A DNA stretch of 64,000 nucleotides from a candidate division WOR-3 bacterium (GCA_039801225.1 JBDRUH010000001.1:1767-65766); one strand, 5' to 3'. Positions 14,593 to 57,676 are shown, counted from the first letter of the stretch. The notes: generated from the sequence alone by a model not told the origin. Numbers and translations: made by a program.

Positions 14593-15079
14593 TCTCTGTC
14601 TGTCTCAACAGGTCGCGTAAGGCTGCGGCTCGCTCATAGTCTTCTTCTTTTATCGCCGCATCCAACTCCGCGCGCAGCCGTTGCACCTCAAGCCGTTCTT
14701 GCGCCTTCTTCCTTCCTTTATTCGGCTCCTTACCTGTGTGACGAATTGAACCGTGGATTCGCCGGATTACCTGCTTTAACTCCTGTTCAAATGCGTTATA
14801 ACAATTCGCACACCCTAACCTGCCCCGGCGCTTAAACTCAGAGAAACTTAACCCGCAGGATGGACAGGTAAAATTTCGGCTTTCGGCTCTCGGCTCTCGG
14901 CTATCGGCCTCTTCTTTCTTGGGTGCGGTCTTCTCCACGCCGGAAAGCCCCCTTTTCCTGCCGCAGTCGGCGCAAATCATTAGTTCCACCGCATTCCCTT
15001 CCTTATCCAACACCTTCACCAAAACTATTCCTGGGTTCTTCCCGCAAAAATCACACAGTTTCATTGTGTAGTTCTCCAT
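14576..15079 (-). CDS. mcsA: McsA-like activator of protein arginine kinase (zinc-finger plus UVR domain)
   Basis: Two CxxC pairs (CDFCGKN...CADCGRK; CPSCG...CANCY) and a C-terminal UvrB/C-like motif (EDYERAAALRDLLRQ). Overlaps mcsB by 17 nt. Start may be the MKLCDF Met at 15064. Confidence 0.7.
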   Translation of the reverse strand: MENYTMKLCDFCGKNPGIVLVKVLDKEGNAVELMICADCGRKRGLSGVEKTAPKKEEADSREPRAESRNFTCPSCGLSFSEFKRRGRLGCANCYNAFEQELKQVIRRIHGSIRHTGKEPNKGRKKAQERLEVQRLRAELDAAIKEEDYERAAALRDLLRQTENEVDT

Positions 15080-18444: not shown

Positions 18445-18661
18445 CGGGGTTAACTATAACTTCCATTCCGCTTCAAGTCAAAAACCACAGAACAGATTAT
18501 GAGAAACCCTAAATCCGAAATCCTAAATTCTAAACAAGTTCAAAGCACAAATGTTCTAAATCCAAAATGTTTTGATAATTGGGATTTTGGTATTAGAAAT
18601 TGTTTAGGATTTAGTGCTTTGAAATTAGGATTTATTAATCTCCTTGCGGTAAAGGAAAAGG

Positions 18662-28545: not shown

Positions 28546-28812
28546 ATGAATAATGGCTGGGAATACAAGTTCTTGCAAATAGATATCAATTTGAGTCCGA
28601 TTTTGAAAATGGCTCGCTGGGGTGTCCAAGTGCCAGGCGAAAAAAAGCCGCGGGATACTATGGAAGGAGTGGAGGCTTATGTAAACGACCTTGGCCGGGA
28701 AGGTTGGGAACTGGTGGCGACTGTGAACGGAACCGATCACAGTGGTGTAATTACCCGGGCGATCCTTTTCTTCAAAAGACCCATCACCGCGAAGGATACA
28801 ACAATGCAATAG
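28546..28812 (+). CDS. DUF4177-like small protein
   Basis: WEYKFLQIDI...GREGWELVATV pattern resembles DUF4177. RBS aggagg upstream. Confidence 0.5.
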   Translation: MNNGWEYKFLQIDINLSPILKMARWGVQVPGEKKPRDTMEGVEAYVNDLGREGWELVATVNGTDHSGVITRAILFFKRPITAKDTTMQ

Positions 28813-28814
28813 GG

Positions 28815-29306
28815 ATGAAGTTCAGCGGGATTGATGCCTTAGCAACTGGTATTGTCTCATTAGTTGCCGGAATTCAGTTTCTTCGGGCAATAAGAGATTT
28901 TTCCCTGGTATTCTATGAAACTATCTTTCTGATTGCATCATTGGTCGCCGCGGTGAAGATATTTATGCCGGTGCATAATTTGAGCGGGCTGTCGGTACCG
29001 GTATCTTTTTTGGTAATATTTGTAATCTTCGCGATATTGGGAATAATCATCGCCAGTATATTCAACCAGACTCTGGAGTTTGGTTTTGGCAGTTTCAACT
29101 ACTTCTTCGGACTGCTCATCGGTATCGCTTGTGGTTTTGTCGTCGGTCACACCGCCCTCAGGACGCTAATTATCGCTTATCGAGAAACAAAGCCAGAATT
29201 GGTTGAATCAATTCACCGTTCCTGGATGGCGAGCCAGGTACTTTATTTTGGTGCCTTTCGGGAATTACTCGGAATGTTAAGAATCGCCCGGTATCACAAT
29301 ATTTAA
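28815..29306 (+). CDS. Hypothetical polytopic membrane protein
   Basis: Start moved to ATG 28815 (MKFSG...), 3 nt after the DUF4177 stop. About 4 predicted TM helices. Confidence 0.5.
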   Translation: MKFSGIDALATGIVSLVAGIQFLRAIRDFSLVFYETIFLIASLVAAVKIFMPVHNLSGLSVPVSFLVIFVIFAILGIIIASIFNQTLEFGFGSFNYFFGLLIGIACGFVVGHTALRTLIIAYRETKPELVESIHRSWMASQVLYFGAFRELLGMLRIARYHNI

Positions 29307-29343: not shown

Positions 29344-29437
29344 GCAAACCTAAAGGTAGTCGCACAGCGACCTGCCCGAATCGGGCAGAGTGCCCTACAT
29401 ATACCCTTTTTGGCTTTTGGATTTTAGATTTTGGATT
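29344..29437. repeat. Intergenic member of the nested palindromic repeat family (core gcaaacctaaaggtagtcgcacagcgacctgc ... gcagagtgccctacat, followed by a ttttggc-type microsatellite)
   Basis: A shared 32-nt core with 36974-37005 (exact). 13-nt termini gcaaacctaaagg and gccctacat shared with 32356-32380. The internal palindrome ctgcccgaatcgggcag. Confidence 0.6.
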
Positions 29438-29446
29438 ATATCTCCT

Positions 29447-29785
29447 TTACCAGCGTCGGTTGGAATAGCCTCCACCGCTACGACCTCCGCGGTGAGAACC
29501 ACGAGTGCCACGACCTCGGACACCACCTCTACTTTCAATTCGCTCCCGGGCTTCAGCCACTTTCAACGCCCGGTCCTCCCAGTTATAGCCATTCAGATTG
29601 GAAATCGCTGATTGAGCCCCCTGGTCATTAGCCATCTCTATAAAAGCGAACCCCCGCGGACGGTTGGTAAACCGGTCGGTAACGATATTTACTGAAACTA
29701 CCTCACCCTGCTGACTGAACAAGTCACGCAGTTGATCTTCTGTTGCGCTGAATGGTAAATTACCTACAAACAAGCGCCTTGACAT
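29447..29785 (-). CDS. RNA-binding protein (RRM domain with RGG-rich tail)
   Basis: RNP1/RNP2: LFVGNLPF and RGFAFIEM. C-terminal GGVRGRGTRGSHRGGRSGGG. Confidence 0.85.
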   Translation of the reverse strand: MSRRLFVGNLPFSATEDQLRDLFSQQGEVVSVNIVTDRFTNRPRGFAFIEMANDQGAQSAISNLNGYNWEDRALKVAEARERIESRGGVRGRGTRGSHRGGRSGGGYSNRRW

Positions 29786-30063
29786 GTTTATCCTCCTATA
29801 TATTGTTATGCCTTAGAGCGTTCAAAAATGGTGGACTTGCGGGTAGGTAGTTTTTCCGCCCCACCAGCATCGAACGGTCTTAAGTTCTTCCCGGGTTATT
29901 TCTCAATTGTTGGCTGATAACCCGTCTTCAGTCAACAATCAATAATACCCAAATTCCTGATAATGTCAAATTTTTTAGGAGATTACCGATGATACTCTCA
30001 GCTGTCAGCGGAATGAATCAGCCGAGGGGCTTGACCCGGAAATAACTATTGGTAAATTAGATT

Positions 30064-31062
30064 ATGCTTTATCGTGAGGCCGGTGTTGATATTGACCGGA
30101 TGAGTGCGGTGAAAAAGGAGATTGCTCAACTGGTGAAAACGACCTTTTCCCCTGAGGTCCTCTCCGAAATCGGGCTCTTTGGCGCGCTATTCCGCTGTCC
30201 AATGGGGAAAAATCCCGTTTTAGTAGCAAGTTGTGACAGCGTTGGAACTAAGGTCTTTATAGCTAAAAATCTGGGTGTCTACCACACGGTAGGCATTGAT
30301 ATTGTCAATCACTGTGTAAATGACATCTTAACCTTGGGGGCAAAACCACTTTTCTTCCTTGACTACATCGCCCATTCTGATCTCAAGAACAGTCAATTGG
30401 TTGATATCGTCAAAGGTCTTTCCCGTGCTTGCCGGATGAACAACTGCTCTCTGGTTGGCGGTGAAACGGCAATGATGCCCGATTTGTATCGCCCGGGTGA
30501 TTTTGATTTGGTCGGTTTTATCGTCGGGGTAGTAGAGAAAAAGAAAATTGTCAACCCTGAGAGTCTTGAGCCGCAAGATCTGGCTATCGGCATCCCCTCT
30601 AGCGGTCTGCACACCAACGGTTATTCCCTTGCCCGAAAAGTTTTATTTTCTAAAAACCGATTCACTGTCTCTTCCCGATTGAAAGGCTTAAGGCGTCCGT
30701 TGGGAAAAGAGTTGCTGGTGCCCCATCGCTCTTATCTTTGGCTCGTTTACCCTCACCTTGAGCATATTAAAGCAATCGCCCACATCACTGGCGGTGGGTT
30801 TTATGAGAATATCAAACGGTTACTGCCGCCAGAGAGGGCATGTATTATCAAAAAGTCATCCTGGCGCCCCAAGCCAATCTTCCGACTGATTCAGCGCTTG
30901 GGTAATATTCCAGACACGGAGATGTATCGGACATTCAACATGGGGATGGGAATGGTGCTATTTATCTCACCGGAACGGAAAGAAAAGGTTCTAAGGGCCA
31001 TCCCCGGGGCGAAGGTGATTGGGAAAATTGTCCGTGGTACATTTGGCGTGGTGGTTATATAA
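30064..31062 (+). CDS. purM: Phosphoribosylformylglycinamidine cyclo-ligase (AIR synthetase)
   Basis: YREAGVDID, CDSVGTK, HCVNDILTLGAKPLFFLDY. Confidence 0.9.
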   Translation: MLYREAGVDIDRMSAVKKEIAQLVKTTFSPEVLSEIGLFGALFRCPMGKNPVLVASCDSVGTKVFIAKNLGVYHTVGIDIVNHCVNDILTLGAKPLFFLDYIAHSDLKNSQLVDIVKGLSRACRMNNCSLVGGETAMMPDLYRPGDFDLVGFIVGVVEKKKIVNPESLEPQDLAIGIPSSGLHTNGYSLARKVLFSKNRFTVSSRLKGLRRPLGKELLVPHRSYLWLVYPHLEHIKAIAHITGGGFYENIKRLLPPERACIIKKSSWRPKPIFRLIQRLGNIPDTEMYRTFNMGMGMVLFISPERKEKVLRAIPGAKVIGKIVRGTFGVVVI

Positions 31063-31067
31063 GAAAT

Positions 31068-31985
31068 TTATGCCCGGGGGTGAAAGGTTTTATAAACCTC
31101 GCGCAGATAACTGCGGTCAATATGGGTGTATATTTGAGTTGTGGTAATACTTTGATGTCCGAGCATCTCCTGGACAGCGCGCAAATCAGCGCCACCTTCA
31201 AGGAGATGGGTAGCAAAGGAATGACGGAGAGTGTGCGGTGTTACCCGGCGTTTGATTCCCGCAAGGTGCCAACATTTCTTTAATATTTTCCAGAACCCCA
31301 TTCGGGTGAGACGAGCGCCACGGATGTTCAAAAAGAGGTAGGGATTACTTTTCCCGCGGCTGTAATAGGGTCGGGCGATGTTGAGATAATCCTTCACCGC
31401 CGAAATTGCCAGTTCCCCTAATGGCACCATTCGTTCCTTGCCTCGTTTACCGATAACCCGGACAAACCTCTCACTTAAATCAATATCACCTGTCTTCAAA
31501 TTAATGAGTTCTGAAACCCTCAAACCAGCCCCATAAGCCACCTCTAACATTGCCTTTGCCCGCAATACCCAGAACCGGTTAGCCACCTTCTCGGCACCCT
31601 CTATCAATTGGGCAACTTCTGATTGACTGAGCGTATCTGGTAGGTGATGCGGTACCTTGGGCACTTTTAAATCAACCGTTGGGTTGCAGGGTAAATTATA
31701 CTCGTTTACTAAAAAATCATAGAAGGAACGAATCGCTATTAACTTACGCGCTAAAGTAGAACTGGCTAACCCACAGTCGGCAAGGTGTCTAATATAATCT
31801 CTAATTGCCGCGGTCTGTGGGTGGTTCAGTCTTTCTTTAAAAGGACCGCTAAGAAATTGCTTCACATCGGTAAGATAGCAGTCTACGGAGGTTTTACTTA
31901 TCCCTCTCTCTACTAAAAGGTAATGGGCAAAACGCTCCAATATCTCGCTTTGTGGCTCTTGCCCGATTCGGGCATTATATTTCAA
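31068..31985 (-). CDS. Site-specific tyrosine recombinase XerC/XerD family
   Basis: RHSFATHLLEGGADLRAVQEMLGHQSITTTQIYTHI (R..H..Y catalytic region). Length 305 aa. Confidence 0.85.
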   Translation of the reverse strand: MKYNARIGQEPQSEILERFAHYLLVERGISKTSVDCYLTDVKQFLSGPFKERLNHPQTAAIRDYIRHLADCGLASSTLARKLIAIRSFYDFLVNEYNLPCNPTVDLKVPKVPHHLPDTLSQSEVAQLIEGAEKVANRFWVLRAKAMLEVAYGAGLRVSELINLKTGDIDLSERFVRVIGKRGKERMVPLGELAISAVKDYLNIARPYYSRGKSNPYLFLNIRGARLTRMGFWKILKKCWHLAGIKRRVTPHTLRHSFATHLLEGGADLRAVQEMLGHQSITTTQIYTHIDRSYLREVYKTFHPRA

Positions 31986-33585
31986 GGTCTGTCTTAGATA
32001 TTATAGTATCTTTCTCAAACCTTTCATCCGGTAAAGGATGATCCTGATTATAGTGGAGACCGCGGGACTCAAGACGGCGCTGGGCGCAGGCAACAATTAG
32101 CCGGGCGGTAAAAAGGAGATTGCGGAGTTCTAAACTATGAATTTCGCAAGCACTGGACACTTGGGATTGAGAACTGAGCACTGATAGTTCTGCCGCCGCT
32201 TTTTTCAGCCCGGCATCACTCCGGACGATTCCCGCATAACGCCACATTATCTCCCGCAGACGCCTTGGCAAATGTGGAAGTGCGAATGCGAAATGCGGAA
32301 ATTCTGAATTCCGAATTCCGAATTCTTTTGGCTTTTGGCTTTTGCCTTTACTTTTTGCAAACCTAAAGGTTTGCCCTACATTTTCCTGTGCCGCTATCGC
32401 CGCCCTTTCGGCAAATACCAGCGCCTCAAGAAGCGAATTGGAGGCGAGGCGATTTGCGCCATGAAGTCCAGTGCAGGCACACTCACCTGCGGCAAAAAGC
32501 CCTTTTATCGTAGACTCTCCCCAGGAGTTAACCAAAACTCCACCGCAGACATAATGAGCTGCTGGAACAACCGGAATCGGCTCCCGGGTAATATCTATTC
32601 CCAAATCAAGGCAGGTTTTGTAAATATTGGGAAACCGCTCCTTTAATCTTTTTGGCGGTATCGGCGAGCAATCCAACAGCACAAATTCCTCCCCGCGCCG
32701 GGCAATTTCAGCAGCAATTGCCCGAGCAACTACATCCCTTGGTGCCAAAGAGCCATCAGGATGGTAGGCGTTCATAAAAGGCTTACCATCCCTGGTCCGC
32801 AAAATTGCCCCTTCCCCCCTAACTGCCTCAGAAATAAGAAACGCCCGGTCGTCTATCTTTCTCCCGTAGAGCGTGGTTGGATGAAACTGGATAAACTCCA
32901 TATTGGCGATTTTTGCTCCTGCCCGGAACGCCATAGCAATTCCATCGCCAGTGGCAATCATAGGATTTGTGGTATGAAGATAGACCTGACCAATTCCTCC
33001 TGTTGCAAGAAGGCATACCCGGGAATGGACAAGGACCATCTCTTTGGTGGATTTATTTAAAACAATCACCCCCCAGTATTCGCCGTTTTCATTTAAAACA
33101 ATATCAACAGCAAAATGCTCCTCCCAGATTTTTACATTTGGTTGAGAACTCACCACCTGAAGCAGACCTCGTTCAATTTCAAACCCGGTGGCATCCTGAG
33201 CGTGAACAATCCGCCGCCGCCTGTGTCCGCCCTCCTGACCGAGGTCAAACTGCGGTTCACCTTTGACATCAACCGTGGCAGAAAACTTTATTCCTAACGC
33301 CCATAACTCCCGGACGAGGCGTGGACCAGATTCGGTAACCAGTTTCACAATATCCTTGTGGGCAAGACCCGCGCCAACCCTAATCGTATCCTCGTAATGA
33401 ATCTGGGGATTATCATCTTCTGCGACTGCAGCGGCGATCCCGCCCTGAGCATAGTTGGTATTTGACTCCGGGCTCTCCTTCTTTGTCACAATAAGGACAT
33501 TCCCTTTCTCTTTTAATTTATAAGCAAACCAGAGTCCGGCGATTCCGGAACCAAGAATTAGATAGTCAACCGTGATTTGATCCAC
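31975..33585 (-). CDS. nadB: L-aspartate oxidase
   Basis: N-terminal FAD motif LILGSGIAGL. FAAGECACTGLHGANRLASNSLLEALVF. C-terminal ESRGLHYNQDHP. Contains an in-frame repeat-derived insert (see finding at 32281-32385). Confidence 0.85.
   Translation of the reverse strand: MDQITVDYLILGSGIAGLWFAYKLKEKGNVLIVTKKESPESNTNYAQGGIAAAVAEDDNPQIHYEDTIRVGAGLAHKDIVKLVTESGPRLVRELWALGIKFSATVDVKGEPQFDLGQEGGHRRRRIVHAQDATGFEIERGLLQVVSSQPNVKIWEEHFAVDIVLNENGEYWGVIVLNKSTKEMVLVHSRVCLLATGGIGQVYLHTTNPMIATGDGIAMAFRAGAKIANMEFIQFHPTTLYGRKIDDRAFLISEAVRGEGAILRTRDGKPFMNAYHPDGSLAPRDVVARAIAAEIARRGEEFVLLDCSPIPPKRLKERFPNIYKTCLDLGIDITREPIPVVPAAHYVCGGVLVNSWGESTIKGLFAAGECACTGLHGANRLASNSLLEALVFAERAAIAAQENVGQTFRFAKSKGKSQKPKEFGIRNSEFPHFAFALPHLPRRLREIMWRYAGIVRSDAGLKKAAAELSVLSSQSQVSSACEIHSLELRNLLFTARLIVACAQRRLESRGLHYNQDHPLPDERFEKDTIISKTDLEI
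32281..32385. repeat. Member of the nested repeat family located in-frame inside nadB (gaattccg tandem, ttttggc microsatellite, gcaaacctaaagg-tttgccctacat core)
   Basis: Shares gcaaacctaaagg and gccctacat with 29344-29400 and 36974-37112. Encodes ...TFRFAKSKGKSQKPKEFGIRNSEFPHFAFALP within the NadB C-terminal linker. Confidence 0.55.
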
Positions 33586-33596
33586 TCTCCAGTTCG

Positions 33597-34280
33597 TTAC
33601 AGTCGGTATGAGACCTTCACGCCTGGCTGATTTTCTGCCGGTTTAAATTCAAGCCGACTACTCAACTTAGCCTCGGGCAGGAAAAACAGACAATCTAAAA
33701 AACTTACCAGCCGGTTCAAGACCAGTGCGGCAGCAAGAAAACTGGCGTTCATCCCGGCAGTCCGTGCGGCTCTTCTCGTGCGCCAGTAGGAATAAATGCG
33801 GATTGAGTCTGAACTCCAGTCCCACTGGGCGCTACCAAAATACCCCCGCGCCTGGTAATATCGGCGCTGGGCATCCGGGTCATTAGGATACAGTTCTCTT
33901 GCCTCCCTTCGGATATCTTCATTGAACTGTTCGGCATTATCGTAAACCTCCAGCGCCCGGTAATAACGGCGGTCGGTTATGGTAATGTCCGCACTGGCAT
34001 ATCTTTTGGCGATAAGCCGGGCGTCTTGCTCCCGGCTCTTCTGTAACCAAGCAAACCCTGCCCAACCCGAAAAGAAAATGCCATCCATCCATAGCATCAC
34101 CTCTCCCCGTTTTTTCACCCCGCTAAGCAACTGCCCACTACCAGGTAGAACTATAGAACTCAGCATCACAACACCTCGCCCCAGTTTCTTGGTTTTGAGT
34201 TCCTGGTTTTGAGTTTTAGAAAATATGAATTCTGAAATAGGGGAATTGCTGACTAATAAGACCGCCAGAACCAAACTCAT
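33597..34280 (-). CDS. Hypothetical membrane protein (DUF5683-like)
   Basis: SIVLPGSGQLLSGVKKRGEVMLWMDGIFFSGWAGFAW resembles the DUF5683 motif. Weak. Confidence 0.4.
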   Translation of the reverse strand: MSLVLAVLLVSNSPISEFIFSKTQNQELKTKKLGRGVVMLSSIVLPGSGQLLSGVKKRGEVMLWMDGIFFSGWAGFAWLQKSREQDARLIAKRYASADITITDRRYYRALEVYDNAEQFNEDIRREARELYPNDPDAQRRYYQARGYFGSAQWDWSSDSIRIYSYWRTRRAARTAGMNASFLAAALVLNRLVSFLDCLFFLPEAKLSSRLEFKPAENQPGVKVSYRL

Positions 34281-34335
34281 TTTCCCTCCTTATTTTTCTT
34301 TTTACTGCTTACTCTTTGCTCTTTAATTTCTAGCC

Positions 34336-37203
34336 TCATTCAATAATCAATTTCTTTCCGGTTATCATGCTTTTATAGCGGACAGTTAAAAAATAGACTC
34401 CAGGAATGAGCCCATCCAGGGCAACCTCCTCTTCAGCTACTCTTAGTTGATATCTCTTTACCTCTCGCCCCGATACATCATAAATACCGATATAAGCACC
34501 GGCTTGGGCAGCAACCTTGATACTTCCCTTTCGCGAGAGAATTGTGGCGCACATTTGGCTTTTGGCTTTTGGCTTTTGGCTTTTAACTTCCTCCACTCCA
34601 ATCAGATTCCAGTCGGTAAGTTTGGCATAAATGTCCCATCCCCGGTGCCGACGGTTGTCAGTCCAGGTAAAAGCAATTCTTTCCCTGTTAGCAGCAACGC
34701 TCTGACCAACAGTCCAGTGGACATTTTTCGGGAATATATTGGGTTCATTAATTTTCTTATTGTTGCTGACTCTTGTTCCATCTTCTCGGAACCGCTGGCA
34801 GTAAATCTGCGGATTGCCATAACCTTCCCTTTCATCGTTAAACATAACCACCAGCCTGCCCGAAGGGTCAAAGGAACAGGTTGGTGAGTAGGCGTCGTAA
34901 TCAAACCCTAAGGGTTCGTTAATCCGTTCATTCTCGCCCAGTGGCTTACCGATTGAGTCCAACCACTGCAGATAAACATTATAGGTCTCGTTTCTGGTAT
35001 CCTCCCAAGCGATCGCTATCCTCCTCTCATCCGATATGGCACAGGCTGGATAACCCTGATAAACGGCACTAGCGTCAGTATTCACCCGAATATTCCCGCC
35101 TATTCTTGAACCATCAGGACGGAATAACTGACAGTAAATATTATAATCACCATCCCGTAAGTCCATCCAACTTACAACCCATTCTCCAGAAGAGTTCATC
35201 GCTACGCTGGCATAACAACCTTCTGCGGCAGGGTCACTAACTAAAAACTCTGGACCCTGGGGATTGCCACTTTCGTCATAAAGCCGGGCAAATATCTGCG
35301 CCTTCCCTTCTCGATAATCAGTCCAGACAACCACCGCCCGATTGAAAGAATCAAGGGCACAATAGGAATACCACTGAAAGCCACCACTCGCATCAGAATT
35401 CACCCGAAAGTTGCCACCGCTCGGCTCACCTTCTCTATCAAAAAACTGACCGTATATATCCGCTTCATCACCTCTGATCTCGGTCCAGGTAACAAGAAAC
35501 CGTCCTTTGCCACCAGCAACACTGGGGTAATAATGGAGCGCACCAGGCAGTTCCTCATTTACTTTAATATTATCGCCTACCTCTTTTCCTAAAGAGTCAA
35601 ACACCGCGAAGTAGATGTCCGATTCACCATTTCGCTCATCATCCCAGGCGATGCCAATATTGCCCTGGCGTTCCATTCCGATTGATGATGTCCGCTGATG
35701 AGCACTAGCGCTATCATCATTCACCTTGAAATTACTGCCAATCGGTGTCCCATCCCGAGCGAGCCTTTGACAGTAGATATCCAAATTCCCTGCCCGGGCG
35801 TCAGCCCAGGCAACCCAGTAACCACCATCCAAAGTGGCTGCCACACTTGGTGAATTTTGGCTGGCTCCCCCGATGTCGGTATTTATTTTAAACTCATCTC
35901 CTATCCGATTGCCCTGGATATCAAACCGCTGGGCATAAATGTCCTCCTGTCCATCCCGACAATCGGTCCAGACAATTATAAACTCACCCAATTGATTTAT
36001 CGCCACATCACTGCCGAACTGGTCGGCATCGCCGTTATCGTTATTAACCCGGAAGTTGTCGCCTATCGGCTCGCCCGAACTTGAATAAATCTGGGCATAA
36101 ATATCCCCCTGACCGCGGCGATGGTCATCCCAGGAGATGACAAACTCACCGCTCGGAGAAACACCGATTGACGGTGACCACTGAGTGCTGTCATCGGTTG
36201 TAACCTGAATGTTATTACCCAACCTGGTGCCATCAAACCGAAATCGTTGAAAGAATATGTTCCAGTCCCAGGCGTTGTTTCCCCTTCCATCCATCCATAC
36301 AACCACAAACCTGCCCGAGTCATCACTTCCTACCGAAGGTTCATACTGATTGGCATAACCAATCGGGTCATCATTTACCCGAAAATTACCGCCTTGGGGT
36401 GAGCCATCGGGGTTGAAAAATTGAGCATAGATATCGCCAGTAAGCCCAAATCTTCGGTCATCCCAGGCAACAAGTGCCGTGCCATCCGCTCCTATGGAAA
36501 CACTGGAAATACTCTGGTCTCCTGCTACCCCAGAATCACTCACCCGGAAATTATCACCAATTCTTGTTCCGTCAGCATCAAACCATTGAGCGAACACATC
36601 CGAGTTGCCAATCTCTCGCCGGTCCTCCCAGGTGAAGAGAAACTTACCATCCAAACCGATAGCACCTGCCGGGTCGCCCTGCCAGCCCATCGTTATATCG
36701 GTATTAACCCGCTCATTTGTTCCGATAGGATGACCGCTGGAGTCAAACCGCTGAAACCATATATCAGCATCACCATCCCGAAACTCATACCAGGCGATGA
36801 CAAATGAACCATCCGAACCTATAGCAATTGCCGGACCGGATTGAGGACAACCACCGGTTATATCATCATTACATAGAAAGTCACCCCGGATGACACTATC
36901 TCTGTCACCCTTATAGGACAAGGCTTTAGCCAACAAAAATGTAGGGCAAGGCTTTAGCCTTGCTTTTCCGAATGCAAACCTAAAGGTAGTCGCACAGCGA
37001 CCTGCGTGCTCCACACAAGGGAGCCCAAAGACAGATGACCGAAGACCGTCTCCGGTCTCCCGTCTCCTGTCTTCTGTTGAGCGGGGTTTGGGGCACGCAG
37101 AGTGCCCTACATTACTCGTGGGGATATTAGCCAAGTTGTAGGACAACGCTTTAGCCCTACCTTCTCCCAAAATCATAAATCCCAATATGAGAATTAAATT
37201 CAT
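34336..37203 (-). CDS. T9SS-secreted protein with ~14 tandem ~48-aa repeats (W.D.R.G..DIY.QRFD..G...G.NFRVN.D motif), family unknown
   Basis: N-terminal signal peptide MNLILILGFMILG. C-terminal type-A sorting domain (IGIYDVSGREVKRY...IPGVYFLTVRYKS...KKLIIE). Repeat periodicity read directly from the translation. The N-terminal ~90 aa and a C-terminal KSQKPKAKSQ linker are encoded by repeat-family DNA. Confidence 0.7.
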   Translation of the reverse strand: MNLILILGFMILGEGRAKALSYNLANIPTSNVGHSACPKPRSTEDRRRETGDGLRSSVFGLPCVEHAGRCATTFRFAFGKARLKPCPTFLLAKALSYKGDRDSVIRGDFLCNDDITGGCPQSGPAIAIGSDGSFVIAWYEFRDGDADIWFQRFDSSGHPIGTNERVNTDITMGWQGDPAGAIGLDGKFLFTWEDRREIGNSDVFAQWFDADGTRIGDNFRVSDSGVAGDQSISSVSIGADGTALVAWDDRRFGLTGDIYAQFFNPDGSPQGGNFRVNDDPIGYANQYEPSVGSDDSGRFVVVWMDGRGNNAWDWNIFFQRFRFDGTRLGNNIQVTTDDSTQWSPSIGVSPSGEFVISWDDHRRGQGDIYAQIYSSSGEPIGDNFRVNNDNGDADQFGSDVAINQLGEFIIVWTDCRDGQEDIYAQRFDIQGNRIGDEFKINTDIGGASQNSPSVAATLDGGYWVAWADARAGNLDIYCQRLARDGTPIGSNFKVNDDSASAHQRTSSIGMERQGNIGIAWDDERNGESDIYFAVFDSLGKEVGDNIKVNEELPGALHYYPSVAGGKGRFLVTWTEIRGDEADIYGQFFDREGEPSGGNFRVNSDASGGFQWYSYCALDSFNRAVVVWTDYREGKAQIFARLYDESGNPQGPEFLVSDPAAEGCYASVAMNSSGEWVVSWMDLRDGDYNIYCQLFRPDGSRIGGNIRVNTDASAVYQGYPACAISDERRIAIAWEDTRNETYNVYLQWLDSIGKPLGENERINEPLGFDYDAYSPTCSFDPSGRLVVMFNDEREGYGNPQIYCQRFREDGTRVSNNKKINEPNIFPKNVHWTVGQSVAANRERIAFTWTDNRRHRGWDIYAKLTDWNLIGVEEVKSQKPKAKSQMCATILSRKGSIKVAAQAGAYIGIYDVSGREVKRYQLRVAEEEVALDGLIPGVYFLTVRYKSMITGKKLIIE
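36938..37112. repeat. MITE-like composite repeat with inverted termini atgtagggca ... tgccctacat, carrying a nested copy of a second repeat (gatgaccgaagaccgtct...)
   Basis: 10-nt perfect terminal inverted repeat. Internal 32-nt core identical to 29344-29375. An 18-nt segment identical to 23916-23933. Flanked by three ggctttagcc motifs. Lies inside the 5' coding region of the gene above. Confidence 0.55.
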
Positions 37204-40200
37204 CGGACAATTGCCAGTTTAGCAAACCTTATTTCTTTTTTTGTTCCATTCTCTACCCGCAGCCTAATAATATAAACTCCCGGAGGTATTTTCTTTAAGT
37301 CCAAAGAGGTTTCATTATCGGCTAATGAAACCGCCTGCCCTTGAAACTCTTTTACAAGCGGTTTGCCGCTCATATCCAAGAGCATAAGCCACACCTTGTT
37401 GTTGCCCTCACCGAGATAATATCGGACATTAACATTGTCTCCTGCTGGATTGGGATAGAGATAAAATGAGTCTATCAGTTTGGGAGAAGAGGAAACCATA
37501 GGCGGGATATAAGGAAGTAAACCGGTATGGCAGGGGTCGTGATAGGCACAAGACCAGTCAGGTGAAACGGTTGCCCCGGGCATTTTCCAAACATAGAAAA
37601 CACCTTGGTCCGAACCAACCGCTATCTCCGATATTCCGTCCTGGTCAATGTCTGCGACCAGAGGAGTTGCGCTGACGGAAGCGGTTGCCATCAAAGGAAA
37701 GTAGGACAACATAGTGCCATTAGTTCCGTCAAAACCGAGGACACCATATTGGGGCGAACCGATGACAATATCCCTTACCCCATCGCCATTCAAATCTACC
37801 GGAATTGGTGAAGAACGATACTCAAACGGCACATCATAGGTGATTATCCAGTTACCGGCCAGTTCTTTTTTAACAAAAGTAGACTCGTGGAGAAAAGGGT
37901 AGTTGGTAACCAGAAGCGCGTTGCGATTGAAGGCAAATATTTTATGCCGAGAGGCTAAAAGGATGTCAAGGTAGCCATCATTATTCATATCACTTACCGA
38001 GACGGTCCCTTGAAAAGGATGCTCTATTAGTTCCCGGGATTCAAACACCACCCTTCCATCCTGCTCCACTATATAAAGCCGGTAGTTATGCTCGCCACCG
38101 GCAACCACCGCTATCTCTAAAACACTATCCCGGTCAAAATCACAAACCACCGGCTGCGCCTGAACATAAAATGGCGCATTACCCAAAACAATCGGGAAGT
38201 TATTAATTAGGCTGCCATCGGAATTTAATAGAAACAGCCGACTGTCACCCGAGAGCACCACAATCTTAGGCTGGATGGTATCGGTAACCGCCACCGGTGC
38301 CCTTATTTCCGAACCGATATAAACCGGAAAATTCCCAACCGCCTCCCCGGTTCCTTTCCAGGCATAAAGCCGCATATCGGTTGCACCAACGATAATATCT
38401 TTTAACCCGTCTCCATCAAGGTCACTAAGCACCGGGGGCGCCTTTATTCGGTCAACGGTCTTCATCATCGCCAATAATTGACCGGCACTGCTATAGACCC
38501 GCACACTTCGGTCATCGCCGGCAACGACAACTTCCAGCCCAGGACTAACCGCCACATCACCGATGGCAATGTCAACACCAATTGACGTTCCGGTATTAAT
38601 GAACCCGCCATTAGGATAACGGTAGCCCTGACCAAAAGGAAGCCAGGCGCTTACCTGACCGGCGCTGTCCGCGGTAACAATCTCTATCGTATCATCGCCG
38701 TCCAAGTCGCAAGCAAACGCACTAAGAAACCGCGACCCCCTACCCTGGTCAACCGGGAAACCCGGCTGGTTAAGTTCCCAGTTTACCTTTACCGGTATGA
38801 CCGTATCCTTAAGCCGGTCAAAAGTGTCTTTTACTCCTAATAGCTCTATCGCCAGGAATGTCTTACCACTATAGCCATCACTGTTCGGATTGGTCCGGGC
38901 ATTAAATTTGTCATTATAACCCTGCCGGGAAAAGGCATCAAATTTGTAACCATAAACTTCATATTGATAGTTGTATGTCTGCCAATAGGGAACATCAAAG
39001 TCCTGAATGCCGTCCGCCTCTTCCAGGTCAACCCCCTTGTGTGCCGGGTCAATATTAATCGCATTATAAGGAGCGTAATCGGCAATAACCTTTTCGTCAA
39101 TATGCCATATTAAAATACCGCTCCCGGGTTGAAAAAAGTCATACTCGTTGGACTCAACCCCGATTAACACGCCATCCTCAACATCAACAATTATTGTATC
39201 CGGCTTTCGCACATCGGTCTGCCGGTTTTCAATCAGGAAATACTCATTTTCATTTATGGGCACCTTCACCACTGTCGGATAGGCGCTATCCGGTCTAAGA
39301 CCGAAAGACCCGGTGTCCATCGCTGCGGCATAAATCAATATTGAATCCCTCGGCACCCGCACTTCTACCGGCTGAATAAAACCCAAACTCACCCGGTTAT
39401 AGGCATCAAGGAAACCAGGTATAACCCCTGGTGGCGCACCGGCACCATAATCTCCTAACCAGCCACCATAACCCATCAGACTCCAAGCACCGACACCCAT
39501 TGTTGCACCGGTCACATCGTATAAATCGTATGCACCCAGAAGATGGGCAAACTCATGGGCTAATGTCCCTGCTAAACCAACCATTCCGGCAAGATTGGTC
39601 TCCCCTTTCTCGGTCAAAGTGTCCTGGCGCATCATCTCCGGCAAAACCGTTGCCTGCTCAATTCTCGTCCTACCCTCATCCACCAAAATATAAGGCTCAC
39701 CCAGATAAGCCTCCATCGCACCCGGTGGAATCTCTCCGGCTAAAAGGTCATAAGGACTGTCCCATTTTCCATCAGCCGCATAATCGGACTGGAGACCACT
39801 GCCCGCATGAAAGATGATAAATTCATCATAATCACTAAACCGAATCGCTGTGTCCTCATCAGCCACCTTAAACGCATCCCGCATCAGCCGAACCAGTCCG
39901 AACTCTATCCCCTCATAGGAAACCGTATCGCCATAAAAGCGCATCTCCCGCGGCAACTGATAAGCCTCCTTTTCCCCTTCCGGCATCACCCGGAAGTCAA
40001 CATAAAGTTTACCCAGTGACTGTGCCCGATAGTAGTTTCTTAAACCCTCCATCAGCCTTTCAAAATACCGTTTGAAGTGGGGCGGGTCGTAAAAAAGACC
40101 GGAATCGGGCGAAAGGAAGCCAAAGGTGTCCATCTTACCATTTCCGGTAGTCAGCCTCGTAGTGTCTTCAACAAACTCCACCCGTAAACACAGCACCCTA

Positions 40201-40454
40201 ACGGTATCAACCTCGCCCATTTTTAATCTTTGAATTCGGGCGATGTCCTTCTCGGTTGGATGAAAACGAAATCGGGCAAAGGGCGAAGTTCCTCCTTGTT
40301 GGATGGTAACTGCCGGAATAAGCCTCTTGGTAAAATCTATCTCTTGGCTTTTTTTCTCCATTCGGGATTTGGCAAGGGTGACCCTATGCGCCTCAACCGA
40401 AACGGGCAAAAAAAACAGCCCCAATATTAAAAAAGTTATTGTATTATTCAACAC
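37200..40454 (-). CDS. T9SS-secreted M6-like (immune inhibitor A-type) zinc metallopeptidase with FG-GAP/VCBS repeats
   Basis: HEFAHLLGAYDLYD (HExxH...D resembling M6). FG-GAP-like DLDGDGLKDIIVG, DLNGDGVRDIVIG, DIDQDGISEIAVG. C-terminal sorting domain LYPNPAGDNVNV...GVYIIRLRVENG...LAIVR. The stop overlaps the start of the downstream cargo gene (ATGA). Confidence 0.75.
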   Translation of the reverse strand: MLNNTITFLILGLFFLPVSVEAHRVTLAKSRMEKKSQEIDFTKRLIPAVTIQQGGTSPFARFRFHPTEKDIARIQRLKMGEVDTVRVLCLRVEFVEDTTRLTTGNGKMDTFGFLSPDSGLFYDPPHFKRYFERLMEGLRNYYRAQSLGKLYVDFRVMPEGEKEAYQLPREMRFYGDTVSYEGIEFGLVRLMRDAFKVADEDTAIRFSDYDEFIIFHAGSGLQSDYAADGKWDSPYDLLAGEIPPGAMEAYLGEPYILVDEGRTRIEQATVLPEMMRQDTLTEKGETNLAGMVGLAGTLAHEFAHLLGAYDLYDVTGATMGVGAWSLMGYGGWLGDYGAGAPPGVIPGFLDAYNRVSLGFIQPVEVRVPRDSILIYAAAMDTGSFGLRPDSAYPTVVKVPINENEYFLIENRQTDVRKPDTIIVDVEDGVLIGVESNEYDFFQPGSGILIWHIDEKVIADYAPYNAINIDPAHKGVDLEEADGIQDFDVPYWQTYNYQYEVYGYKFDAFSRQGYNDKFNARTNPNSDGYSGKTFLAIELLGVKDTFDRLKDTVIPVKVNWELNQPGFPVDQGRGSRFLSAFACDLDGDDTIEIVTADSAGQVSAWLPFGQGYRYPNGGFINTGTSIGVDIAIGDVAVSPGLEVVVAGDDRSVRVYSSAGQLLAMMKTVDRIKAPPVLSDLDGDGLKDIIVGATDMRLYAWKGTGEAVGNFPVYIGSEIRAPVAVTDTIQPKIVVLSGDSRLFLLNSDGSLINNFPIVLGNAPFYVQAQPVVCDFDRDSVLEIAVVAGGEHNYRLYIVEQDGRVVFESRELIEHPFQGTVSVSDMNNDGYLDILLASRHKIFAFNRNALLVTNYPFLHESTFVKKELAGNWIITYDVPFEYRSSPIPVDLNGDGVRDIVIGSPQYGVLGFDGTNGTMLSYFPLMATASVSATPLVADIDQDGISEIAVGSDQGVFYVWKMPGATVSPDWSCAYHDPCHTGLLPYIPPMVSSSPKLIDSFYLYPNPAGDNVNVRYYLGEGNNKVWLMLLDMSGKPLVKEFQGQAVSLADNETSLDLKKIPPGVYIIRLRVENGTKKEIRFAKLAIVR

Positions 40455-48935: not shown

Positions 48936-51308
48936 GTGGATAAAGAAACACTGAACGCCCTTGACTTTCCTCGCCTTAAGGAGATATTAGTGAATTTTTG
49001 CACCACCGAGTTGGGCAGAGAAAAAGCCCAACAGTTGATGCCCAATTTAACCCCAGCAGAAGCAAAACTGGAACTGGACCGGCTGGAGGAGGTCTTAGAA
49101 CTAAACCAGGAACCACCGCTGAGCGGCATTGTTGACATCAGAACTTTAATTACCCAGGCACGGGTAGGAAGGGTATTAACCCCTGGAGAACTTCTGAAGG
49201 TTTATGCCACCTGTACCGGTCTGCGGGCAAGCGAGGAGTTTTTTCGACGTTACAAAAAAGACCAAAGAGCGCTGAGAGGAAAAAAAGAGCCGACCGCCAA
49301 CGGCCGACAGCCGAACGAAGAAAGTGACCTTGGGTCTTTAGTAAATGATATTGTCTCATTCCCGGAACTGGAACAGGAGATTAAACGGGTGATTGACGAA
49401 TCCGGAATGGTGCGCGACACCGCCAGCCCGAGGTTAGCAGAAGTTCGGAGTGAGTTAAAAGAACGGCGCAACCAACTGGTGGCACAATTGGAAAGAATGA
49501 TTGAAACCAATCCAGATTGGTTTGAAGGACCGGTGATGGTTCGCCGGGAGCGGTTTGTTCTGCCGGTAAAGTTACCCGAAAAGAACCGGGTCCCGGGAGT
49601 GGTTCATTCGGTATCGGACACCGGTCAAACGGTGTTTATTGAGCCGTTAACCACCATCCCGGAGCAGAACCGACTCCAAGAATTGCGCGACGCCGAGAAG
49701 GAGGAGATAAACCGACTTCTGCGCGACCTGTCGGCAAAAGTGGCCACCTTTGAGACAGAGCTAAGCCGAGCATTGGACCGGGTTGCCGCTCTGGACCTGC
49801 TTATTGCCAAACGCCGGCTGGCGATAAAATTCAACTGCCATAAACCAATCATTACCGATGAAGGAAAAATAGAATTAGTCCAGGCAAGACACCCGCTCCT
49901 TCTCCTCCATAAACAGGAGGTCGTTCCCTTAGACCTTCGTTTCCCTGATGGGGTAAATGTTGTCATTGTTTCTGGACCGAATGCCGGCGGAAAGACGGTG
50001 GTTCTAAAAACCTTGGGGCTTTGCAGTCTATTGCTCAAAGCCGGGATGTTTGTCCCGGCAGCCTCAGGAACAAAGTTACCTTTCTTTGAGAAGATTTTTG
50101 CCGATATCGGTGACGAGCAGTCGCTTGAGGCGGATATGTCCTCATTTACCGCCCATCTGAAACGGCTAAAAGAAATTCTCCTTGAGGCGGATGGACGAAG
50201 TTTAGTTTTAATTGACGAAATTGGTGCCGCCACCGCCCCTGAAGAAGGTGCCGCGCTGGCGATCGCGGTCTTGGAAGAGTTACGGAATCGGCAAATTTCC
50301 ACTGTTGCCACCACCCATTTCAACACCCTTAAACTCTTTGCCCGGAATGAGCCCGGGATGGTGAATGCGGCGATGGAGTTTCAAAACCGACCGACCTATC
50401 GGCTGATAATGGGAGTGCCGGGAGAGTCAAGCGCGTTTGAAATCGCCGAAAGTCTGGGTTTCCCAGCTCAGCTATTGGCGCGGGCAAAGATGCGGCTGGG
50501 CAAAGAGTGGCTTGACTTAAGTGCCAAATTAAGAACGCTTGACAAAAAATTACAGGAGGTGGAAAAGGAACGAGGCGAATTAAGGACGGAGAGAAGCCGT
50601 GTTGAACAACTGGCAAAGGAATATCAGACGAAATTAGGGGAATTTGAAATTTGGCGAAAGGAGCAGATGGCTCACCTCCACGAGGAGGAGGAGCGCTTCC
50701 TTAAGGAAACTCGCCGCCAGGTGGAAAATCTGATTCGGGAATTGAGGGAAGAAAAGGCAAACCATAAAAGTATCGTCCGGGCAAAGCGGTATATTGAGGA
50801 GCGACTGAGTCAATTGAGTAAGGAACCAATCAGCCAACAGCCGGCTATGACCGGGGAAAGTCTGGCGATAGGCGATGTGGTGGAGTCAAGATTATTTCAC
50901 CGCCAGGGTCAGATAATAGAGTTGAAAGGAAACCGGGCGGTGGTGGCGTTTGGCAATATCAAAACGGAGTTGGACATCCGCGACCTAAACCCAGCCGTCA
51001 GCCCTCAGCCGACAGCCAACCGCGGACAGCCGAATGAAGAACAATATGAGTTTATCCCCAGGCTGAATGTCCGGGGAATGACCAAAGAGGATGCGGTGAA
51101 TGCGCTTAACCGCTTTCTTGAGGAGGCAACCATCGCCAGAGTAAATGAGTTATCAATTCTTCATGGAAAAGGAACCGGTGCCCTGCGCTCAATCATCTGG
51201 CGTCGGTTGAAACAGGATAAACGGGTTATGGAGGTCAGATTTGCCGAGCCGGCGGAAGGCGGAATGGGTGTAACATTGGTCAGGCTGAGGTTAAGTAGTA
51301 ATGATTAA
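48936..51308 (+). CDS. mutS2: Endonuclease MutS2 (MutS domain plus C-terminal Smr)
   Basis: Start set at in-frame GTG 48936 (VDKETLNALDFPRLKEIL). The track ORF from 48762 would overlap rpsU. Walker A SGPNAGGKT. C-terminal Smr (LNVRGMTKEDAVNALNRFL...LHGKGTGALR). Confidence 0.85.
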   Translation: MDKETLNALDFPRLKEILVNFCTTELGREKAQQLMPNLTPAEAKLELDRLEEVLELNQEPPLSGIVDIRTLITQARVGRVLTPGELLKVYATCTGLRASEEFFRRYKKDQRALRGKKEPTANGRQPNEESDLGSLVNDIVSFPELEQEIKRVIDESGMVRDTASPRLAEVRSELKERRNQLVAQLERMIETNPDWFEGPVMVRRERFVLPVKLPEKNRVPGVVHSVSDTGQTVFIEPLTTIPEQNRLQELRDAEKEEINRLLRDLSAKVATFETELSRALDRVAALDLLIAKRRLAIKFNCHKPIITDEGKIELVQARHPLLLLHKQEVVPLDLRFPDGVNVVIVSGPNAGGKTVVLKTLGLCSLLLKAGMFVPAASGTKLPFFEKIFADIGDEQSLEADMSSFTAHLKRLKEILLEADGRSLVLIDEIGAATAPEEGAALAIAVLEELRNRQISTVATTHFNTLKLFARNEPGMVNAAMEFQNRPTYRLIMGVPGESSAFEIAESLGFPAQLLARAKMRLGKEWLDLSAKLRTLDKKLQEVEKERGELRTERSRVEQLAKEYQTKLGEFEIWRKEQMAHLHEEEERFLKETRRQVENLIRELREEKANHKSIVRAKRYIEERLSQLSKEPISQQPAMTGESLAIGDVVESRLFHRQGQIIELKGNRAVVAFGNIKTELDIRDLNPAVSPQPTANRGQPNEEQYEFIPRLNVRGMTKEDAVNALNRFLEEATIARVNELSILHGKGTGALRSIIWRRLKQDKRVMEVRFAEPAEGGMGVTLVRLRLSSND

Positions 51309-56396: not shown

Positions 56397-57676
56397 GCAC
56401 CCGGGTTCTCCTTGTCGGTGTCGTAAAGTCCGGTCGGGAACGGTGGGCTAAAATTGAGGGTTTAGAGGAATTGGCCGCATTGTGCAAAACCTCCGGGGGA
56501 ACGGTAATAGAAAAACTAATCCAGGTCCGCTCCCATCCTGACCCGGCAACCTTGATTGGCAAAGGGAAAGCCCGGGAGTTGAACACCATCTGCACCACCT
56601 ACGATATCCACTTAATTGTCTTTGATGATGAACTTACCCCCACCCAGATAAGGAATCTTGAGGACATTATCGGTGTCCGGGTTATTGACCGCCCGGCATT
56701 GATTCTGGACATTTTTGCCATTCATGCCCGGACCGCCGAGGCAAAGACCCAGGTAGAACTTGCCCAGTTGGAGTATTTAAAAACCCGATTAACCGGCTCA
56801 GGACTGGAAATGTCCCGATTAGGTGGGGGTATTGGTACCCGTGGTCCAGGTGAGACGCAACTTGAGGTTGACCGCCGCCGGATTGAACAGCGAATCCAAA
56901 CCCTGCGTCAAAGACTCGCCCGGATTGACCGCGAGCGACAGGTGCAGCGGAAACGGCGCAGCAATATCCTCCAATTTGTCCTTGTTGGCTACACCAATGC
57001 CGGTAAGTCAACCGTTTTCAACCGACTAACCAGGGCGCACACAAAAGTCTCTGACGAACTCTTTGCTACCCTTGATGCCAACACTAGACTTTTGAGATTG
57101 AGTCACAATATTTCGGCGGTATTAACCGATACCGTTGGTTTTATCCGCAACTTACCCACCCAGTTAATCGCCAGTTTCCGCTCCACTCTGGCAGAAATCA
57201 AAGATGCCGACTTAATTCTCCATATTGCCGATGCCAGCGCCCCTCAGGTAAACGAACAGATAGCAGCGGTAAAGGAAACGCTCCAGGGACTCGGGGTGGG
57301 CGAAAAGCCGACACTACTCATCTTCAATAAAATTGATCGGGTTTTTGATGAAACAGTCCTTCTCCGGCTAAAGGAGCACTACGAAGATTCGGTATTTATC
57401 TCCGCCCTTACCGGTTATGGGATAGAAAAACTACTAAAAAAAATACGCTCTTTCGTGAACCGTCTCTTGATAACAAAAACATTTATCATCCCCAGCGAAC
57501 GCTGGGATCTGGTAACCCAGATCCTCAACGCCGGGGAACTTCTCGGCGACGAGGAAATCAATGGCAAACGCCGTCTCAAAATAAGAAGCTTTCCGGCAGA
57601 AATTGCTCGCTTACGCAAACTCCTTACTGCCGGTCGGCTGACGGCTGAGGGCTCGACCGCTATTCCTCTATTTTAA
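56393..57676 (+). CDS. hflX: GTPase HflX
   Basis: Start moved to ATG 56393 (MSTRVLLVG), an ATGA overlap with the upstream stop. HflX N-domain and the GTRGPGETQLEVDRRRI motif. G1 GYTNAGKST. Confidence 0.85.
   Translation: MSTRVLLVGVVKSGRERWAKIEGLEELAALCKTSGGTVIEKLIQVRSHPDPATLIGKGKARELNTICTTYDIHLIVFDDELTPTQIRNLEDIIGVRVIDRPALILDIFAIHARTAEAKTQVELAQLEYLKTRLTGSGLEMSRLGGGIGTRGPGETQLEVDRRRIEQRIQTLRQRLARIDRERQVQRKRRSNILQFVLVGYTNAGKSTVFNRLTRAHTKVSDELFATLDANTRLLRLSHNISAVLTDTVGFIRNLPTQLIASFRSTLAEIKDADLILHIADASAPQVNEQIAAVKETLQGLGVGEKPTLLIFNKIDRVFDETVLLRLKEHYEDSVFISALTGYGIEKLLKKIRSFVNRLLITKTFIIPSERWDLVTQILNAGELLGDEEINGKRRLKIRSFPAEIARLRKLLTAGRLTAEGSTAIPLF

Follow-up and report, generated by a model that had tools for sequence, protein, structure and literature searches.

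Palindromic repeats between and within genes of a candidate division WOR-3 bacterium are probably REP/REPIN elements linked to a RAYT transposase

A stretch of 64 kb of candidate division WOR-3 DNA (the window; coordinates are counted from its first letter), assigned to this division by its homologues of L-aspartate oxidase (NadB) and of type IX secretion system (T9SS) proteins, carries short palindromic repeats. What are these repeats, how did they reach their present sites and how can coding sequences accommodate them? The initial annotation had proposed a single family of nested repeats, present in intergenic DNA and in frame within coding sequence and resembling the Rickettsia palindromic elements (RPE). 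Its description of their location and nesting was supported; the idea of one family held for the palindromic cores, but not for the heptamer arrays, which are simple tandem repeats, nor for one core, which is a chance 13-mer. We found that the palindromic cores are very probably GTAG-tagged repetitive extragenic palindromic (REP) sequences and their inverted doublets (REPINs), linked to a REP-associated tyrosine transposase (RAYT), with in-frame copies lodged in permissive protein linkers.

Read GTAG-first, the unit consists of (A)T-GTAG-G, a 7-bp stem, a 4-nt loop and the returning stem. It exists in two versions which differ through compensatory stem changes, a GGC-stem version, GTAGGGCAAGGCTTTAGCCTTGC, at 36941 on the + strand and an ACC-stem version, GTAGGGCAAACCTTTAGGTTTGC, at 32379 on the - strand. 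The GTAG-G tag lies directly 5' of the hairpin at both positions and also heads the composite copies at 29398(-) and 37110(-). The single REPs and the REPIN fold better than shuffled sequences, with z values from -3 to -7: the DNA folding energies were -13.2 kcal/mol (z -3.3) for the copy at 29344-29400, -6.4 kcal/mol (z -3.0) at 32357-32381 and -7.5 kcal/mol (z -3.3) at 36939-36963, and the doublet (36936-37114), closed by ATGTAGGGCA/TGCCCTACAT, reached -48.7 kcal/mol (z -7.0).

Outside the window, the same two hairpins frame a transposase gene. In three other WOR-3 metagenome-assembled genomes (MAGs GCA_039802125.1, GCA_039802105.1 and GCA_026416055.1; loci L177, L178 and L180) a RAYT gene is flanked by exactly the two window units: two to three direct copies of ATGTAGGGCAAGGCTTTAGCCTTGC precede the gene, and its last codons and TAA stop lie inside GCAAACCTAAAGGTTTGCCCTACAT, the stop being in the loop of GCAAACCTAAAGGTTTGC in all three loci. 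In metagenome loci, where the RAYTs were located by the HUH motif and an N-terminal motif, these REPs flank a Y1_Tnp protein of ~160 aa (Pfam E 1e-10 to 1e-11; L060, L066, L072, L106 and L138, L144 being the same sequence as L106), with the GGC-stem hairpin just upstream of the gene and a right-type hairpin at or over its 3' end. The left-end 23-mer of the window occurs, identical, upstream of the RAYT genes in L060, L072, L106 and L177-L180. Since they flank the gene in this way, GTAGGGCAAGGCTTTAGCCTTGC (GGC stem) is the left end and GCAAACCTAAAGGTTTGCCCTAC (ACC stem) the right end of the RAYT unit, and the doublet 36939-37112, whose two hairpins are those of the RAYT gene in the other WOR-3 MAGs, is a REPIN, with both ends and without the gene, the right hairpin carrying nested hairpin inserts.

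The RAYT proteins passed the NCBIfam model of REP-associated tyrosine transposases (NF047646, 93-97 bits for a cut-off of 80) and failed the IS200 model (NF033573, 28-34 bits for a cut-off of 55). Among solved structures, E. coli TnpA-REP (4ER8) is their best relative. The L072 protein had 1,815 homologues at E <= 1e-10 in a database search; their hosts, where named, included WOR-3, Elusimicrobiota, Saganbacteria, Acidobacteriota, Desantisbacteria, Margulisiibacteriota, Brocadia, Kuenenia, Scalinduaceae, Omnitrophica and Deltaproteobacteria, and the hosts carrying the identical 23-mer or REP loci range from 27% to 70% GC. These data bear on a possible, if unlikely, alternative, in which the elements would be miniature inverted-repeat transposable elements (MITEs) of a still autonomous, horizontally moving insertion sequence (IS) of the IS200/IS605 type and not the cargo of a domesticated single-copy RAYT. 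Such an origin would fit two hairpins that are the ends of a unit with a Y1 transposase gene, over 1,800 homologues spread across many phyla and frequently located on very short contigs, as multi-copy DNA would give, a 23-mer kept identical over this range of host GC and a gene flanked by tandem REPIN arrays; against it, the protein lies over the RAYT equivalog cut-off and under that of IS200, and the GTAG tag and REP doublets are hallmarks of RAYTs (Di Nocera et al. 2013, PMC3733652).

The reading as RAYT-linked REPs gains from the covariation of the hairpin. A stem-degenerate pattern matching the window unit gave at least 146 matches in at least 120 stretches of the JGI metagenomes. This pattern admits 16 stem combinations, 4 complementary and 12 not, and the stems were complementary in 144 of the 146 matches listed. 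Among these matches, 75 of the 142 distinct copies had a CCTAC-tagged partner at most 90 nt away, the usual layout being GTAGGGCAAGGCTTTAGCCTTGC, a spacer (median 12 nt) and a second hairpin of different stem ending in TTGCCCTAC. The partner hairpins, which the pattern does not constrain, had perfect 7-bp stems in 49 cases out of 75, with 8 stem variants. Judging from these sequences, the short stem-loop is maintained through compensatory changes, as in GTAG REPs. Most of the metagenome copies (137 of the 146 listed) lie outside long open reading frames (ORFs), as does one of the three window loci, and the WOR-3 loci L177 and L180, picked for holding a RAYT gene, contain ~10 REP units in 8-13 kb.

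An earlier scan of genome contigs had used the pattern GTAGGGCAANNNTTTAGNNNTTGC, one base longer than the window unit, and the only motif it gave was a sister one whose loop has 5 nt. This motif, many copies of which form inverted doublets, lies mostly in one Thermodesulfobacteriota MAG (21 loci), with further hits in Scalindua, Nitrospiraceae, Desulfobacterales, Nostoc and others. In this Thermodesulfobacteriota MAG (JBNAWB01, L003-L032), at least 21 copies of a ~120-nt MITE-like unit surround the sister REP GTAGGGCAAGCCTTTAGGGCTTGC, with its 5-nt loop, and both the upstream and the downstream flanks are conserved. Matches of a loose pattern in viral contigs were rejected, 21 of 23 being non-complementary chance matches in coding DNA and 2 complementary, and the composite-insert pattern AAGGTAGTCGCNNNGCGACCT had no match in these contigs. 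In a full-text literature search, the REP sequence matched nothing but unrelated primers.

Some REPIN doublets form regular tandem arrays, in L111 (4348-4944, 96-nt period, at least 7 units) and in L072 (6804-7548, 80-nt period), where they flank the RAYT gene; a reading of both arrays as clustered regularly interspaced short palindromic repeats (CRISPR) was rejected, the 'spacers' being themselves repeated. A second GTAG REP family was seen in the same WOR-3 MAGs (L178 10200-10700, L177 10200-10260) as GTAGTGGCAGACC..GGTCTGC and GCAGACC..GGTCTGCCACTAC; these WOR-3 genomes therefore host several REP types.

Within the window, the shared cores, the 32-nt repeat, the inverted termini and the nesting described by the initial annotation were all recovered, at positions differing from its own by at most 1 nt. 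GCAAACCTAAAGG occurs at 29344, 32357 and 36974, GTAGTCGCACAGCGACCTGC at 29356 and 36986, and GCCCTACAT at 29392, 32373 and 37104, and the perfect 10-nt inverted termini ATGTAGGGCA and TGCCCTACAT start at 36939 and 37103. Of three claimed copies of ggctttagcc, two are exact (GGCTTTAGCC at 36922 and 36950) and the third, CGCTTTAGCC at 37147, has 1 mismatch. The two composite copies have 32 exact nt in common (29344-29375 and 36974-37005), a pair expected ~2e-10 times by chance in 64 kb. The chance expectation of an 18-mer pair is 0.06; GATGACCGAAGACCGTCT, at 23916 and 37034, extends to a match of 43 nt with 84% identity. The 13-mer CCCGTCTTCAGTC, at 23941 and 29921, is not significant, ~61 exact 13-mer pairs being expected by chance, and the 13-mer cccgtcttcagtc was rejected as a family member, being at chance level.

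Both composites are ACC-stem REPs broken after GGT by the same insert (AGTCGCACAGCGACCTGC ... GCAGAG), which contains two small hairpins. On the + strand the 29344 composite reads GCAAACCTAAAGGT, then the 33-nt insert AGTCGCACAGCGACCTGCCCGAATCGGGCAGAG, then TGCCCTACAT. In the 36974 copy, the CTGC/GCAG hairpin is further enlarged by a 91-nt palindromic insert (37006-37096) with a (GAGACGG)n array. The relative of its heptamer-rich core at 23912-23954 has no significant fold of its own. Nesting was also found elsewhere: a 36-nt hairpin insert, CTTCAAGAACCGATGGTTCTTTCAGAACCAGAGGTT, sits in the loop of three REP copies of L178, at the position GGCTTT^AGCC (5000-5045, 6660-6710 and 7705-7755), and in none of the corresponding copies of the sister MAG L177, and further metagenome copies have extra hairpins inside the REP loop. 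The 36-nt element was not seen outside REPs. Nesting is a recurrent property of this REP family, and its origin might be either the copying of a variant REP or a second element targeting the hairpin.

These nested copies also bear on a very unlikely alternative, in which the hairpins would be structural signals of RNA or DNA kept by the host (such as mRNA 3'-end stabilisers, terminators or protein-binding sites) and spread by recombination or gene conversion instead of transposition. The composite and the 36-nt loop insert of L178 each occur in several copies of one genome, a pattern that gene conversion would yield, and the 29344 copy lies between convergent genes, by both 3' ends, the typical REP position (PMC3733652). 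Such signals would leave unexplained the copy in the middle of nadB, the copies following signal peptides and the transposase gene framed by both hairpin types; moreover, no T-run follows the hairpins, and an Rfam search with gathering and E-value thresholds found no RNA family for the repeats.

The RAYT-linked REPs can also be followed between close relatives. Two were compared with the window, L001, an independent assembly (GCA_965648965.1) of a 99.8%-identical strain, and L002, a 92% relative. Over ~25 kb of 99.8-99.97% identity, the sole structural difference from L001 is a 49-nt deletion in its 29344 composite REP, bounded by AGGT microhomology. L002 has a REP and a composite at a non-homologous site, in another T9SS cargo protein: the orthologue of the window gene 25188-26633 (484 aa) carries a composite and an intact REP in frame before the sorting domain (..ENVGHSAWGGRKATTLLFPTVGQTFRFASS..), and the window gene has no REP at this insertion site. 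The same comparison bears on an assembly or binning artefact of a MAG, which we regard as scarcely credible. Related contigs do break at or near the repeats, L001 starting at window position 34326 and L002 inside the T9SS N-terminal cluster; the independent assembly, however, shares the nadB linker, with 2 SNPs, and the spacer element, and the same REPs are found in more than 120 unrelated contigs.

The sorting domain of the cargo gene 25188-26633 differs from that of its L002 orthologue (window 23957-25280, L002 10317-11771). A remnant of the ancestral sorting-domain coding sequence is found at 24105-23960, behind a ~1.2-kb insert which is flanked by 46-nt direct repeats (24000-24045 and 25234-25279; 80% identity) and holds hairpin repeats and small ORFs. 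At 24180-24330, longer hairpin repeats (..GTCATTCCGACCGAACCAATGGCGAGTGGAGGAATCCC.. and its complement) form an inverted pair on either side of a heptamer array, and a fragment of this hairpin family (GAGGAATCCCTTTCGG..) occurs in the T9SS N-terminal region of L002, at positions 1-60.

We then considered the copies lying in coding DNA. Residues 397-438 of NadB, encoded by the REP together with three heptamer arrays, form the linker between the FAD_binding_2 and the C-terminal helical domains. This linker contains no stop in the ORF frame versus 1 and 2 in the others, and among the 23 orthologues aligned it is hypervariable both in length and in sequence. The window and L001, whose linker DNA is the same with 2 single-nucleotide polymorphisms (SNPs), carry the REP; the L002 orthologue, with a linker built up of GCCGACA heptamers, lacks it, as do all of the 20 orthologues that are more distant. 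Comparison of the orthologous nadB and cargo genes in relatives showed that the inserts are lineage-specific, and not ancient peptide segments. In an AlphaFold model of NadB, the pLDDT was below 50 at residues 405-434, which might form a disordered loop; because the alignment was shallow, the support given by this model is weak.

In the 955-aa T9SS cargo ORF, the cluster of four REP units is located between a signal-peptide-like start, MNLILILGFMILG, which aligns with the signal peptides of homologues, and a conserved DSVIRGDFLCNDD block, and the homologues are ~40 residues shorter at this site. No stop occurs in the 101 codons of the ORF frame, versus 5 and 8 in the other frames, and the ATG of the ORF overlaps the stop codon of the upstream gene (ATGA). 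The claim of the initial annotation that the three intragenic sites keep the frame open is borne out. The NCBI annotation of this gene (P0121, 865 aa) starts at a TTG at 36931 inside a degenerate REP and is without a signal peptide; the signal peptide so omitted is encoded 270 nt upstream of this TTG. It may be asked whether the intragenic status is an illusion of annotation, the T9SS gene starting after the repeats and the cluster being a leader that lies between two genes and is not translated. Non-coding status is probable for many N-terminal REPs (PMC3733652), and the NCBI start is in keeping with such a leader. We hold it to be improbable here: an 865-aa form would lack a signal peptide despite its T9SS sorting domain, the alignment of the long form with signal peptides, the ATGA overlap and the open frame all argue for translation, and a leader is inapplicable to nadB, where conserved domains lie on both sides, and to the 484-aa L002 protein. 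The 955-aa form is therefore more likely than the 865-aa form, the start of P0121 is probably an annotation error due to the repeat cluster, and the evidence from frame, signal peptide and start codon makes it reasonably probable that the REP inserts are translated. Further coding cases were found among the metagenome matches listed, 9 of 146 copies being inside long ORFs, such as a REPIN immediately ahead of another T9SS sorting domain (L114) and units that directly follow signal peptides (L131 and L149).

The peptide TFRFA, as the initial annotation had stated, is encoded in frame in both NadB and the T9SS protein. Of the three frames of the REP in the GTAG orientation, two carry TAG (ATG-TAG and CTT-TAG), and the only open frame, GTA-GGG-CAA-ACC-TTT-AGG-TTT-GC, gives VGQTFRFA, and VGQGFSLA for the left end. 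The shared TFRFA is due to this single stop-free frame and not to common descent of the two sites; that two copies are read in the same frame is true, and it is no coincidence in need of explanation.

From these observations the following scheme is proposed. The left and right hairpins are the ends of an IS200-like unit whose gene encodes the HUH/Y1 transposase RAYT, and when the gene is missing the two ends stand 10-60 nt apart as an inverted doublet, the REPIN. By analogy with E. coli TnpA-REP and IS608, RAYT would recognise GTAG and the hairpin on single-stranded DNA and would cut and rejoin at the REP, whereby REP and REPIN copies would spread. Copies in coding DNA would persist only in a tolerant unstructured linker, with a length that keeps the frame and with the stop-free frame of the element being read; the recurring peptides VGQ(G/T)F(S/R).. 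and ARLKPCPT would follow from these conditions. REP hairpins would in addition be hot spots for second-order hairpin inserts, giving the nested appearance.

Several observations weigh against this interpretation. The enzyme was found only in other WOR-3 MAGs, which are of lower GC; no RAYT gene occurs in the window, in the fetched parts of the two closest relatives, L001 and L002, or in L181, and phmmer with E. coli RayT against the six-frame ORFs of the window and of loci L001-L055 returned nothing. The six REP units of the window, at three loci, all fall within one 8-kb stretch, the other 56 kb having none. The 33-nt composite insert is seen in the window lineage only, the NCBI-annotated start of the T9SS gene falls past the repeats, and no clean pair of empty and filled sites with exact junctions was found, linkers and spacers being replaced wholesale between relatives. 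For the window's genome we infer, by analogy, that movement may have been driven by RAYT.

A wider proposal, which we regard as speculative and doubtful, is that one REP pair and its RAYT lineage moved among many phyla (WOR-3, Elusimicrobiota, anammox Planctomycetota, Omnitrophota, Acidobacteriota and others, GC 27%-70%) while keeping the 23-nt hairpins, and that these hairpins are specific landing sites for smaller hairpin elements, the 33-nt one in two window copies and the 36-nt one in three L178 copies. If true, this would be a layered parasite-on-parasite system repeatedly supplying linker-coding sequence to secreted proteins.

The runs of ttttggc, which had been counted with the palindromic repeats, are real arrays (at 29408, 32300/32325 and 34554) but simple tandem repeats, outside the palindromic family. 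In L002 and the 81% homologue P0122, the array at 34554 has diverged counterparts at the same site. Arrays of period 7 or 14 account for 16 of the 27 arrays detected by TRF in the window, versus ~0.9 per shuffled window; examples lie at 7675-7706, 10099-10138, 14876-14908, 18504-18534, 24134-24168, 49289-49317, 50992-51033 and 57635-57653. Eleven out of 15 heptamer arrays are within ORFs, encoding peptides such as SRQPT, DSREPRAESR and KSQKPKAKSQ. The same linker may hold another heptamer in relatives, as in nadB with GCCAAAA/AATTCGG in the window versus GCCGACA in L002. The heptamer arrays are an independent, slippage-prone class of simple repeats populating the same permissive linkers. The positions of the repeats and of the neighbouring genes are collected in Table 1.

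Table 1. Repeats and genes of the window discussed in the text (RRM, RNA recognition motif; FTHFS, formate-tetrahydrofolate ligase).
Feature	Position	Strand	Context or basis
Relative of the heptamer-rich core of the nested insert	23912-23954	+	43 nt, 84% to 37030-37072; directly after FTHFS stop codon
Composite right-end REP, single copy	29344-29400	-	Spacer between convergent genes 28704-29306(+) and RRM gene 29447-29785(-)
Heptamer array TTTTGGA/TTTTGGC, ~4.3 units	29408-29437	.	Directly after RRM gene stop; separate repeat class
RRM protein	29447-29785	-	Pfam
Xer-type integrase	31068-31985	-	Pfam
L-aspartate oxidase NadB	31975-33585	-	Pfam
Three abutting heptamer arrays (GCCAAAA, AATTCGG, GCATTTC-like)	32262-32349	-	Rest of NadB linker (KSKGKSQKPKEFGIRNSEFPHFAFALPHLP)
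Intact right-end REP GCAAACCTAAAGGTTTGCCCTACAT	32357-32381	-	In nadB; GTAG on coding strand; residues 402-410 (NVGQTFRFA)
955-aa ORF with T9SS C-terminal sorting domain	34336-37203	-	Pfam
(GCCAAAA) array, 4.4 units	34554-34584	-	In frame, linker before T9SS sorting domain (KSQKPKAKSQ)
Whole REP cluster, 4 units	36914-37161	-	Residues 15-97 of the 955-aa T9SS cargo ORF 34336-37203
Degenerate left-end REP TAGGACAAGGCTTTAGCC	36914-36931	+	Sequence family comparison
Intact left-end REP ATGTAGGGCAAGGCTTTAGCCTTGC, left half of REPIN	36939-36963	+	23-mer also upstream of RAYT genes
Composite right-end REP, right half of REPIN	36974-37112	-	33-nt-type insert as at 29344
Degenerate REP TGTAGGACAACGCTTTAGCCCTACC	37137-37161	+	Sequence
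M6 peptidase/FG-GAP T9SS cargo	37200-40454	-	Pfam

These results extend the range of the REP/REPIN-RAYT system to an uncultured phylum, candidate division WOR-3, and give a rule for recurring in-frame REP peptides, with one stop-free frame per element. They have consequences for annotation, as the REP cluster probably led the NCBI pipeline PGAP to leave a T9SS cargo protein without its signal peptide, and the repeats are points at which assemblies break. The identity of the hairpins across phyla and the recurrent nested inserts are modest leads for research on mobile DNA, the separate and strong excess of heptamer arrays is a further one, and no new category of element is opened.

The behaviour of the window repeats is that of RPEs, being palindromic, present between genes and in frame within genes, with products apparently still functional. 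RPE-1 is ~100-150 bp long. The window elements measure 23-25 nt, bear the GTAG tag and are linked to a RAYT, and they were set apart from RPEs by tag class. GTAG- and CGTC-tagged REP super-families have been described, and the short intragenic RPE-4 and RPE-6 of Rickettsia are assigned to the CGTC-tagged ones, a class lacking a dedicated transposase (PMC3733652). The resemblance to RPEs noted initially therefore stands for behaviour and not for family: membership was rejected on tag class, the window units being GTAG and not CGTC.

The heptamer arrays recall the short tandemly repeated repetitive (STRR) sequences and small dispersed repeats that cyanobacteria reportedly possess; the likeness lies in heptanucleotide tandem arrays scattered genome-wide and in tiny hairpin repeats nested in each other and in genes, and the differences are the phylum and the unit sequences. 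With IS200/IS605 and their miniature derivatives, the window family has in common subterminal hairpins flanking a Y1 transposase and gene-less derivatives that retain the two ends, but the associated protein falls under the IS200 NCBIfam cut-off and over the RAYT one, while reaching that of the wider Pfam Y1_Tnp family.

The REPs and bacterial interspersed mosaic elements (BIMEs) of E. coli with RayT (4ER8) and the REPINs of P. fluorescens share with the window family GTAG 5' of a short stem-loop, inverted doublets, an HUH/Y1 gene framed by the same hairpins, a mostly extragenic location near gene 3' ends and hetero-dimers (PMC3733652). In general, RAYT genes are framed by REPs, and REP dimers occur head-to-head and tail-to-tail, including hetero-dimers with different stems (PMC3733652). 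In contrast to the E. coli and P. fluorescens REPs, the window family has left and right hairpins that differ systematically, a RAYT stop located in the right-hairpin loop and frequent second-order inserts. The better-known REP families are genus-specific, whereas the window 23-mer is identical across many phyla, with 27-70% GC, and the WOR-3 phylum is not on the published list of phyla with GTAG repeats (PMC3733652).

In-frame REPs in protein linkers are uncommon, but they have already been described in other bacteria: contrary to the initial view that such behaviour is rarely described outside Rickettsia, in-frame intragenic REPs, often near the N-terminus, are reported in Opitutus terrae, Thauera, Rickettsia conorii and others (PMC3733652). 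The intragenic GTAG REPs of Opitutus terrae and Thauera resemble the window copies in being single or dimeric, in frame, 20-80 residues long and often N-terminal (PMC3733652). The genes stressed in that work are those of DNA replication and repair, whereas here the hosts are nadB and T9SS cargo genes, with heptamer arrays in the same linkers.

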